Notes under the pieces: model-generated
Told to the model about the DNA's origin: nothing
Seen by the model: the letters and a program-made list of their open reading frames with translations, nothing else
Database searches by the model: none
In this document: piece after piece, positions 16,374-50,787 of the stretch
How the letters are laid out: the number at the start of each line of letters is the position of its first letter
Numbering within the stretch: the stretch's first letter is position 1
From: an uncultured virus (IMG/VR IMGVR_UViG_3300032268_000966)
Lineage: Duplodnaviria; Heunggongvirae; Uroviricota; Caudoviricetes
Length of the DNA stretch: 64,000 nucleotides
IMG/VR virus record: IMGVR_UViG_3300032268_000966
Strand: one strand, 5' to 3'
Translations under genes and position numbers: made by a program

Positions 16374-16462
16374 ATTTTTGCTTTTTTTAAATTATAGGTT
16401 AAATAAAAATATTAGTCAAAAAAAAAACATTCAGTAGAAATACTGAATGTTAATAACTTAAG

Positions 16463-16632
16463 CTGTAAGGGAAGGAGTCGAACCTTCAAGAGGAGATTCA
16501 ATTAATAACACAACGCTTGCAAGCTGGTGGTCTACCCCATATCATTAATCTATTTCTTTGTCCCCGCCCACGAGACAGGTGGGTGCGTATGCCAAGGTCA
16601 TAACTGAGACAACCCAATTTCGCCACCTTACA
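16463..16632 (-). ncRNA. 170-nt tRNA-like RNA (GTC at the anticodon position) with D-loop insertion and giant variable arm
   Basis: Acceptor TGTAAGG/CCTTACA, T arm GAAGG-TTCGACT-CCTTC, anticodon arm CCCAC-CTGTCTC-GTGGG. Confidence 0.8.
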
Positions 16633-16728
16633 ATATTTGAACTAACTCACTGGAAACCTTATAATTGAATTTAATCAACTTATGGGTTAAGTACTCCGTT
16701 TATGTTAGTTCCTCGTACTCCAAGTTTG

Positions 16729-16813
16729 CGGAAGCTCAGGGATTCGAACCCCAGATACCTTTCAGTATGACGGTTTTCAAGACCGTTCCATTCAACCACT
16801 CTGGCAAGCTTCC
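16729..16813 (-). tRNA. tRNA-Ser(TGA)
   Basis: GGAAGCT/AGCTTCC acceptor; ACGGT-CTTGAAA-ACCGT; long variable arm. Confidence 0.95.
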
Positions 16814-17038: not shown

Positions 17039-17093
17039 GTGTATTTTATTTAATAGTCTTTTTATATTGACACAAAAGTAGTATATTTGTGTC

Positions 17094-17516
17094 ATGAAAA
17101 CAACACTCACACTCTTTTTATTATTTATTTCTTTTGTTGGTAAAAGTCAGACTTCTGATATTATGTATGTTCCCGATGAAAAAAGTTTGGTAGTTACGTA
17201 CAACAATAATTATAATGGTTTTGGTTATTATATCGGTGGATATGTGACTACAACGTTTCCTCAACCATATATCTACACAACACCTCAGTCAAGAATAAAT
17301 AGAGTTGGGATTAGTTTAACCAATCATAAATTTTCTATTATGGGTGGTGTTTTTGGTGAAACTTATTTTAATGGTGTCAATTTCAAACCAGATGTTTGGG
17401 TTAAGGTATATCCATTAAGAATATTAACTAATACCAAACGTGGACCCGATTTAACTGTTGGTATAAATTTCATGCAAGGAATTAGATACGGTTTTGGGTT
17501 ATCAATTCCATTTTGA
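17094..17516 (+). CDS. small outer-membrane beta-barrel protein
   Basis: Signal peptide, alternating strands, C-terminal Phe; TATATTTG upstream. Confidence 0.65.
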   Translation: MKTTLTLFLLFISFVGKSQTSDIMYVPDEKSLVVTYNNNYNGFGYYIGGYVTTTFPQPYIYTTPQSRINRVGISLTNHKFSIMGGVFGETYFNGVNFKPDVWVKVYPLRILTNTKRGPDLTVGINFMQGIRYGFGLSIPF

Positions 17517-42607: not shown

Positions 42608-42692
42608 TGACACGTTGCCATAGAGGCCGAATGGTCCAGACTGTTAATCTGGTGAGTAAAATCCAACGTAGGTTCGAATCCTACCGTGTCAG
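42608..42692 (+). tRNA. tRNA-Asn(GTT), long variable region
   Basis: TGACACG/CGTGTCA; CCAGA-CTGTTAA-TCTGG. Confidence 0.9.
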
Positions 42693-42734
42693 CTTTATTT
42701 TTTGAATAATTTATTATATTTATATTAACTAATA

Positions 42735-43882: not shown

Positions 43883-43955
43883 GGTTCCGTGGTTGAATGG
43901 TTACAATTCCACCCTGTCACGGTGCGAGATACGGGTTCGAATCCCGTCGGGACCG
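43883..43955 (+). tRNA. tRNA-Asp(GTC)
   Basis: GGTTCCG/CGGGACC; loop CTGTCAC. Confidence 0.93.
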
Positions 43956-50595: not shown

Positions 50596-50670
50596 CGGAG
50601 TCCCGAATTAACGGGAAACCCCCACTCCCATATGGCAGCCAGTCCGTTAAGCTGGTGAAGTGGGGTAGGA

Positions 50671-50773
50671 AGTTAAGTAGTAGATATGTAAACGAGCACA
50701 GGGCTCGGTAAGTCGAAATGGTGATGATTCTCTTTACGAGACTACATTGTGGGTTCGAATCCCACCTTAACAA
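50671..50773 (+). ncRNA. tRNA-like RNA with canonical T arm and acceptor stem but non-canonical interior
   Basis: GTTAAG/CTTAAC; GTGGG-TTCGAAT-CCCAC; no standard D or anticodon arm. Confidence 0.6.
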
Positions 50774-50787
50774 CAAAAAAAAATGAT

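Follow-up and report, generated by a model that had tools for sequence, protein, structure and literature searches.

A giant tRNA-like RNA of phages and Bacteroidia with a predicted role in asparagine metabolism

We analyzed a 64,000-nucleotide stretch of an uncultured Caudoviricetes virus (IMG/VR record IMGVR_UViG_3300032268_000966), hereafter the window. It carries 21 tRNAs, an RNA ligase, a thymidylate synthase and PPK2, and looks like part of a huge freshwater (lake) phage. Relatives are found on IMG/VR contigs that reach 334 kb; two of these contigs, of 256 and 289 kb, are complete. A first-pass annotation had described on the minus strand a giant tRNA-like RNA with inserts in the D loop and variable region, and all its stems and inserts are present (Table 1). 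The canonical tRNA-Asp that it placed at 43883 is likewise called by ARAGORN. As for the hairpins it reported in the variable region, the inserts exist, but GCUUGCAAGC is a perfect palindrome rather than a simple hairpin and the small hairpin reads GG-GG-UAGA-CC-A-CC. The D arm is of what we take to be the tRNA-Leu type, and an AAUA/GAA internal loop of the variable arm appears loop-E-like. G73 is directly followed by C, and CCA is not encoded. The element probably closes a transcript comprising a short ORF, tRNA-Ser(UGA), a 92-nt structured module and the element itself, before a terminator-like hairpin; the promoter-like site ahead of it is presumably of the Bacteroidota type.

Table 1. Coordinates of the tRNA-like element, its parts and its flanking features in the window
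Feature	Position	Strand	Remarks
Promoter-like site, TTG, 20 nt, TACTTTTG	17073..17103	-	by eye; ahead of short ORF, tRNA-Ser, module and element
tRNA-Ser(UGA)	16728..16813	-	ARAGORN; upstream, same probable transcript as element
Separate 92-nt structured module	16636..16727	-	between tRNA-Ser and element; z -2.94
Whole tRNA-like RNA gene	16463..16632	-	position 1 = 16632; discriminator G73 = 16463
Acceptor stem, 5' strand	16626..16632	-	7-bp stem; U1-A72 and G2-C71, invariant in phage and bacterial alignments
D arm	16585..16623	-	3-bp stem; A14 A15, G18 G19; A15 with invariant U48; invariant columns
D-loop hairpin	16595..16615	-	21 nt; optional, variable in length and sequence; 57/79 phage copies
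Anticodon arm	16567..16583	-	5-bp stem; loop CUGUCUC; GUC = 16576-16574; U37, C38
Variable arm	16488..16566	-	79 nt; 4-bp base helix, 4-nt bulge, 3-bp xGA/UCx, AAUA/GAA internal loop, 11-bp helix, distal junction
Small distal hairpin GG-GG-UAGA-CC-A-CC	16526..16538	-	conserved; most other copies, phage and bacterial, have a UUGA loop
Perfect 10-nt palindrome GCUUGCAAGC	16515..16524	-	largely phage-specific; probable dimerisation site
T arm (5-bp stem), acceptor 3' strand, G73	16463..16487	-	G73 78/79, C74 79/79 phage copies
Intrinsic-terminator-like hairpin and T run	16426..16451	-	just downstream of element; 1 found, shuffles mean 0.5

Two of the scans suggested in the first-pass annotation do not pick up the element: ARAGORN does not call it in the window, and Rfam returns no match at gathering or E<=10 thresholds, RF00005 included. 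The folding energy of the single window sequence is no better than that of shuffled sequences (z = -0.21; variable arm alone, z = -0.87), and three other copies range from z = -1.56 to 0.92. The case for the element therefore rests on its homologues. R2, a bacteria-weighted model, gives it 124 bits; no tRNA of the window exceeds 48.

Further phage copies were collected by pattern searches. An anticodon-arm pattern yielded 28 loci and a variable-arm pattern at least 120, while synteny with the downstream ORF gave 41 loci, only some of which hold the element. From 165 pattern matches we retained 133 full elements, 79 of them distinct, and dropped 32 (30 unrelated, 2 truncated); since the search pattern contained the variable-arm motifs, their invariance in the 79-copy set is by construction. 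A pattern restricted to the 3' end matched 120 loci (93 distinct). Forty of these were new; one was an ordinary tRNA, leaving 39 further copies. Over a 47-pair structure, 98.2% of cells are paired among the 79 copies and 32 of 47 pairs are changed on both sides, including 8 of 11 in the 11-bp variable-arm helix. This covariation exceeds that of all 500 shuffles, and slid controls reach at most 52% paired; selection rather than decay, as first proposed, is thus upheld.

U1-A72 and G2-C71 are each found in 79 of 79 phage copies and G73 in 78; G34, U35, C36 and C38 are constant, position 37 is always a pyrimidine, and U33 occurs in 62. In the 3'-end set, read by eye, GUC is present in 39/39, a pyrimidine at 37 in 38/39, C38 in 34/39 and U33 in 3/39. 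The variable arm spans 77-84 nt across the 79 copies, its xGA/UCx triplet being AGA/UCU in 66 and CGA/UCG in 13. The D-loop hairpin described earlier does exist in the window copy but is optional: 22 of 79 phage copies lack it, and we saw one among the bacterial copies read (G283). Three readings of these features were discarded. A T-box, in which GAA would precede a Ser codon, is ruled out by the pairing of the triplet as AGA/UCU or CGA/UCG in 79/79 copies, and a K-turn by its register. Pairing of the GUC loop with a GAC of the distal hairpin is unsupported: both are near-invariant and show no covariation, and several bacterial copies lack the hairpin.

A perfect palindrome of 8-12 nt is present in 77 of the 79 phage copies, and one of at least 8 nt in 37/39 of the 3'-end set (by eye). 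Across those 77 copies there are 13 distinct strings (11 after merging extensions), the centres of which vary (UGCA, GGCC, CGCG, UCGA, CCGG, AGCU) yet remain self-complementary. Symmetry through the centre is unneeded by a hairpin loop but needed for the pairing of two molecules. We infer from this that the palindrome is, with good probability, an intermolecular dimerisation site and the phage RNA a dimer. Among 63 bacterial copies read by eye, 62 lack the palindrome and one has it.

Some copies are unusual. One contig (L299) carries two tandem phage copies, one full and with palindrome but with C73, the other without distal hairpin and palindrome. A pattern scan of genome contigs gave 16 matches, of which 6 are real, all on short contigs of Bacteroidota metagenome-assembled genomes (MAGs) that are probably binned phage pieces; L190 may be a misjoin through tRNA-Ser. 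In a BLAST search of cultured phages with the window element, the best 20 of 761 rows were all tRNA-Ser matches; a bacterial copy gave no match.

The 92-nt module upstream of the element is either wholly present or wholly missing in relatives (seen in L051, L054 and L066), has no Rfam match, and is covered by RNA-library contigs in three of four runs. In L031 and L036, a further conserved module of several hairpins (about 90 nt) lies just downstream, between element and terminator; L038 and L041 have, just upstream of the element, another giant tRNA-like RNA whose anticodon and variable arms are long; and in L197 the element directly precedes an apparent tmRNA 5' part (by eye). The complete phage G004 has a Leu-type tRNA mimic whose anticodon arm is extended (L331, about 1500-1635). 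Elsewhere in the window, on the plus strand, we noted a tRNA-Asn(GUU) with class II-like D arm, long variable arm, U1-A72 and G73 (42608-42693), and an uncalled tRNA-like stretch of about 105 nt whose T arm is perfect and whose ends are acceptor-like (50668-50776); R2 gives this stretch a weak 16 bits.

RNA runs provide a hint of expression. Word shares were small (0.05-0.14), none of the 24 runs listed reaching half. Among four runs examined, two have contigs on the element and two on the flank only. One contig, from a relative, covers the anticodon arm and variable arm unbroken at a depth of 23, and another run holds variable-arm pieces at depths of 240 and 29; these contigs show no mature ends and may derive from DNA.

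The model of phage copies also retrieved a second copy in a Cytophagales MAG, flanked by ordinary chromosomal genes. The RNA is present in 85 of 101 genomes of one Cytophagales family, nearly always in single copy, and in 25 of 141 genomes of a class-level (Bacteroidia) sample. In bacterial copies the core and proximal arm are preserved and the distal end varies freely, the overall length being 112-218 nt; several of these copies lack the small distal hairpin. In an alignment of 32 bacterial and 8 phage rows, 97.3% of cells are paired, 27 of 37 pairs are changed on both sides, and U1-A72 and G2-C71 are each conserved in 40/40. ARAGORN makes no call in 30 bacterial loci, which thus show no tRNA cluster around the RNA, and Rfam none in 8. 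The RNA is therefore real, conserved and unannotated, with no Rfam family.

An AsnC-like ORF occurs in 52 of 60 bacterial loci and is divergently transcribed from the RNA where read. Among NCBIfam families, AsnC PRK11179 matches this ORF best (159-162 bits, below the curated cutoff of 227); the next family reaches 76 at most. AsnC adjoins asnB in 1 of 15 asnB loci, the GatB-AspS fusion described below in 0 of 4 and asnA in 0 of 1. The single asnB case (L519 1437-1898, genome G210) is an AsnC-family gene divergent from asnB, in the same layout as AsnC and the RNA. Tandem pairs of the RNA lie behind AsnC in G238 (L376), G142 (L375/L393), G312 (L400) and G285 (L408); both copies of G238 have a UUC anticodon, and its GatB is the lowest-scoring of the phylum sample. 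G37 is found in four bacterial copies. Genome G322, which has asnA, contains an 82-nt relative (L419 1501-1582) with an AUC anticodon and no adjacent AsnC, possibly a relaxed remnant. Four viral contigs carry a host-type arm, and the three that are readable lack an 8-nt palindrome, which fits repeated capture from hosts. The phage RNA is a copy of a chromosomal Bacteroidia gene linked to AsnC and GatCAB.

The conserved positions combine the marks of two tRNAs. In the available text of PMC9976931, G73, G34, U35, C36 and C38 are strong Asp determinants, bacterial tRNA-Asp has a conserved G1-C72 that helps E. coli AspRS, the determinant of amidation is U1-A72 (the accessible part of PMC4206432 agrees), and an extra D-loop base, U20a, blocks amidation. 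Phage tRNA-Asp genes have G1-C72 and A37 in 3/3 cases, and host tRNA-Asn has U1-A72 in 5/5. The RNA thus corresponds to tRNA-Asp in its anticodon and to tRNA-Asn in its first base pair. At position 20a it has A rather than U, and the D loop is class II-sized; the hairpin that 57 of 79 phage copies add there may clash with GatB. By comparison with canonical tRNA-Asp, the Asp identity set is present but G1-C72, purine 37 (found in 0/79 and 1/39 phage copies), a short variable loop and an RF00005 match are absent. The element is probably a tRNA mimic that does not decode, as first suggested from the pyrimidine at position 37. The UUC copies, G37 in four and the common U33 leave room for decoding, in which case the RNA would place Asn at Asp codons.

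We then compared the distribution of the RNA with that of the enzymes concerned, using one class-level sample of 141 genomes throughout (the unpublished G317 is one gatB-positive, RNA-negative row, and no conclusion depends on this genome by itself). Scores are bimodal: 25 genomes reach at least 93 bits, ordinary class II tRNAs at most 62 and one odd 82-nt copy 71. A deep rescan of 15 negatives gave ordinary tRNAs only. The RNA occurs in 25 of 105 gatB-positive and 0 of 36 gatB-negative genomes (Fisher 6e-4; kinship is ignored in this and all following counts). Where GlnRS is present, GatCAB is not needed for Gln; among GlnRS-positive genomes of the class sample, the RNA is found in 13 of 14 with stand-alone GatB, 0 of 35 without GatB and 0 of 4 with a GatB-AspS fusion. 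Of the gatB-positive, GlnRS-negative genomes, 75 of 87 lack it. Genomes with AsnA or a housekeeping (PRK09431-type) AsnB carry the RNA in 0 of 20 cases. Broad AsnB-family paralogues are present in 22 of the 25 RNA-positive genomes, the other three being without any AsnA or AsnB-family match; an asnS match is missing in 3 of 25.

In the family sample of 101 genomes, 82 of the 90 whose GatB is not fused carry the RNA, as do 0 of the 7 that have a long GatB ORF (kinship ignored), the remainder being three RNA-positive drafts without gatB match and one genome with neither; six negatives rescanned deeply lack it. GatB thus accompanies the RNA in 25/25 genomes of the class, 13/13 of the phylum and 82/85 of the family sample; none was found in three phage records. 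The long ORF represents a fusion of GatB and AspS that has an RDHG motif, and in the four class-sample cases this fusion is a second AspRS; within the family, one was read as a fusion and the others, one of 876 aa, were assigned by ORF length and score. In two loci (L424 804-4124, L560 2717-6031), gatA is followed by a fusion of about 1,105 aa, again a second AspRS with RDHG motif. Our literature search found no paper on this fusion. An AsnC orthologue query gave best matches of only 37-40% in four of five fusion genomes and none in the fifth, against 75-82% in three RNA-bearing relatives. Regulator and RNA are thus missing together where an enzyme solution appears, although the fusion genomes may represent few evolutionary events. 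We take a His motif in AspRS as the sign separating discriminating from non-discriminating types; it did not separate RNA-positive from RNA-negative genomes, being present only in the fusions and in no stand-alone Bacteroidia AspRS, even without an AsnRS match (69 of 80 parsed).

A link between the RNA and asparagine metabolism is well supported by three independent lines, identity, synteny and distribution. As to its nature, we put at roughly 60% the reading that the RNA is a carrier devoted to tRNA-dependent asparagine synthesis, does not decode, and was captured by phages. It would be processed and CCA-tailed as a tRNA. Host AspRS would load it with Asp, because AspRS reads G34, U35, C36, C38 and G73, and GatCAB would amidate the bound Asp to Asn, because it reads U1-A72. 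Pyrimidine 37 and the giant arm would keep this Asn-bearing RNA with an Asp anticodon off the ribosome; Asn would then be released and reused by AsnRS, although we know of no release step for Asn from such an RNA. In E. coli, AsnC activates asnA at low Asn; in the hosts, AsnC would turn the RNA gene on when Asn is low, and phages would carry it as an auxiliary metabolic gene outside AsnC control. In most phages, the palindrome would pair two molecules into a two-headed substrate for a dimeric enzyme. Since host tRNA-Asn also has U1-A72, a relaxed AspRS would render the RNA unnecessary. To the full version, a bacterial class of chimeric tRNA acting as covalent carrier of an Asp-to-Asn pathway in asnA's stead, captured as an RNA-only auxiliary metabolic gene and made two-headed by the palindrome, we give even odds.

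Among other explanations, the one that survives best, though we consider it unlikely, is a regulator or scaffold of the Asp/Asn pathway: a decoy of AspRS or GatCAB, or a holder of the transamidosome, with no net production of Asn, the bivalent phage form being a competitor or inhibitor. It accounts for all synteny and distribution data and also fits the RNA-positive genomes without asnS match, the AspRS His result and the phage-only additions. It explains less well why the RNA is absent where another Asn source exists (0/20, 0/7, 0/4), and why both acceptor end and anticodon are strictly conserved.

An improbable alternative is a stable RNA of the T4 species 1 kind, acting as a processing signal or as a decoy of an anticodon nuclease, with the asparagine link an inherited coincidence. 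The tRNA/ncRNA cassettes and varied contexts of the phage copies, the existence of such RNAs in T4 and the other giant tRNA mimics of these phages agree with it; nothing was found that specifically favors the nuclease decoy put forward in the first-pass annotation. The bacterial gene, however, stands alone beside AsnC outside tRNA clusters (ARAGORN, 0/30 loci), and RNA and AsnC orthologue are jointly missing where the fusion appears. The T4 species 1 and 2 RNAs (rnaC and rnaD; NC_000866) are likewise stable small RNAs in a phage tRNA cluster, and rnaC ends in a T-arm-like hairpin. But R2 matches neither of them, finding the T4 tRNAs only (L326), and they have no GUC loop in this frame.

More doubtful still is a serine acceptor with an Asp anticodon, similar to allo-tRNAs, which would cause Asp-to-Ser mistranslation or serve as a SerRS decoy. 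G73 and a long arm are SerRS elements, phage copies often adjoin tRNA-Ser, and GUC is among the commonest allo-tRNA anticodons in the available text of PMC5389517. As far as that text and the accessible part of PMC7609411 go, allo-tRNAs and selC* tRNA-Cys share with our RNA the long variable arm, G73 and often GUC, but have 8/4 or 9/3 folds, a Sec-like D arm and diverse anticodons, in contrast to the 7/5 fold, fixed GUC and fixed AsnC neighbour seen here. The 7-bp acceptor, 5-bp T stem, 3-bp D stem and Leu-type D arm, together with pyrimidine 37, depart from an allo-tRNA or tRNA-Sec, SerRS does not need the invariant anticodon and C38, and the AsnC/GatB pattern would be left unexplained. Finally, splicing of the inserts as introns to yield an ordinary tRNA-Asp can practically be set aside, even if the D insert is optional and the D loop without it would be of normal class II form: motifs in the variable arm are conserved and its helices covary, no bulge-helix-bulge is seen by eye, a spliced product would retain U1-A72 and pyrimidine 37, the same phages have a canonical tRNA-Asp, and the contigs of the four RNA runs contain no joint skipping the arm (weak evidence, as is the one contig spanning anticodon and variable arm), so that the inserts seem to be retained.

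The indirect Asn pathway, in which a non-discriminating AspRS and GatCAB act on tRNA-Asn (available text of PMC4206432 and PMC9976931), has the enzymes and chemistry predicted for the carrier, with U1-A72 and G73, and the RNA is found where GlnRS and AsnRS coexist with GatCAB while AsnA or housekeeping AsnB is not found. The predicted substrate differs, however, in being a separate 112-218-nt RNA with an Asp anticodon instead of tRNA-Asn; it would be the RNA that provides the specificity, and the product is probably not delivered to the ribosome. With bacterial tRNA-Asp(GUC) (RF00005), the RNA shares G34, U35, C36, C38, G73, G2-C71 and the 7/5 acceptor-T domain, but it has U1-A72, pyrimidine 37, a Leu-type D arm and a giant variable arm, does not keep U33 and has no RF00005 match. 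A non-proteinogenic tRNA-Gly of S. aureus is likewise diverted from the ribosome to supply an amino acid to another pathway; it is of normal size and gives Gly to the cell wall (available text of PMC8007984), whereas our RNA is giant and the amino acid would be converted on it. A viral candidate RNA, DNAVirus_1850, overlaps one tRNA-Asp call in the accessible part of PMC10690425 and may belong to the same family. A literature search, beyond whose reach lay most subscription papers, found no description of the RNA; the available portions of PMC5389517, PMC7609411 and PMC8007984 present non-canonical tRNAs, none of them like it.

An RNA gene missed by ARAGORN and Rfam thus occurs in the majority of genomes of a family that includes cultured members. 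The carrier reading offers a testable answer to the retention of GatCAB in many Bacteroidia having both GlnRS and AsnRS, and to their supply of asparagine without AsnA. If the reading is true, the RNA would be, within the literature searched, the first dedicated carrier RNA for the synthesis of a free amino acid, and in phages an RNA auxiliary metabolic gene. Should the dimer be real, the phage palindrome would provide a natural dimeric tRNA for structural work.
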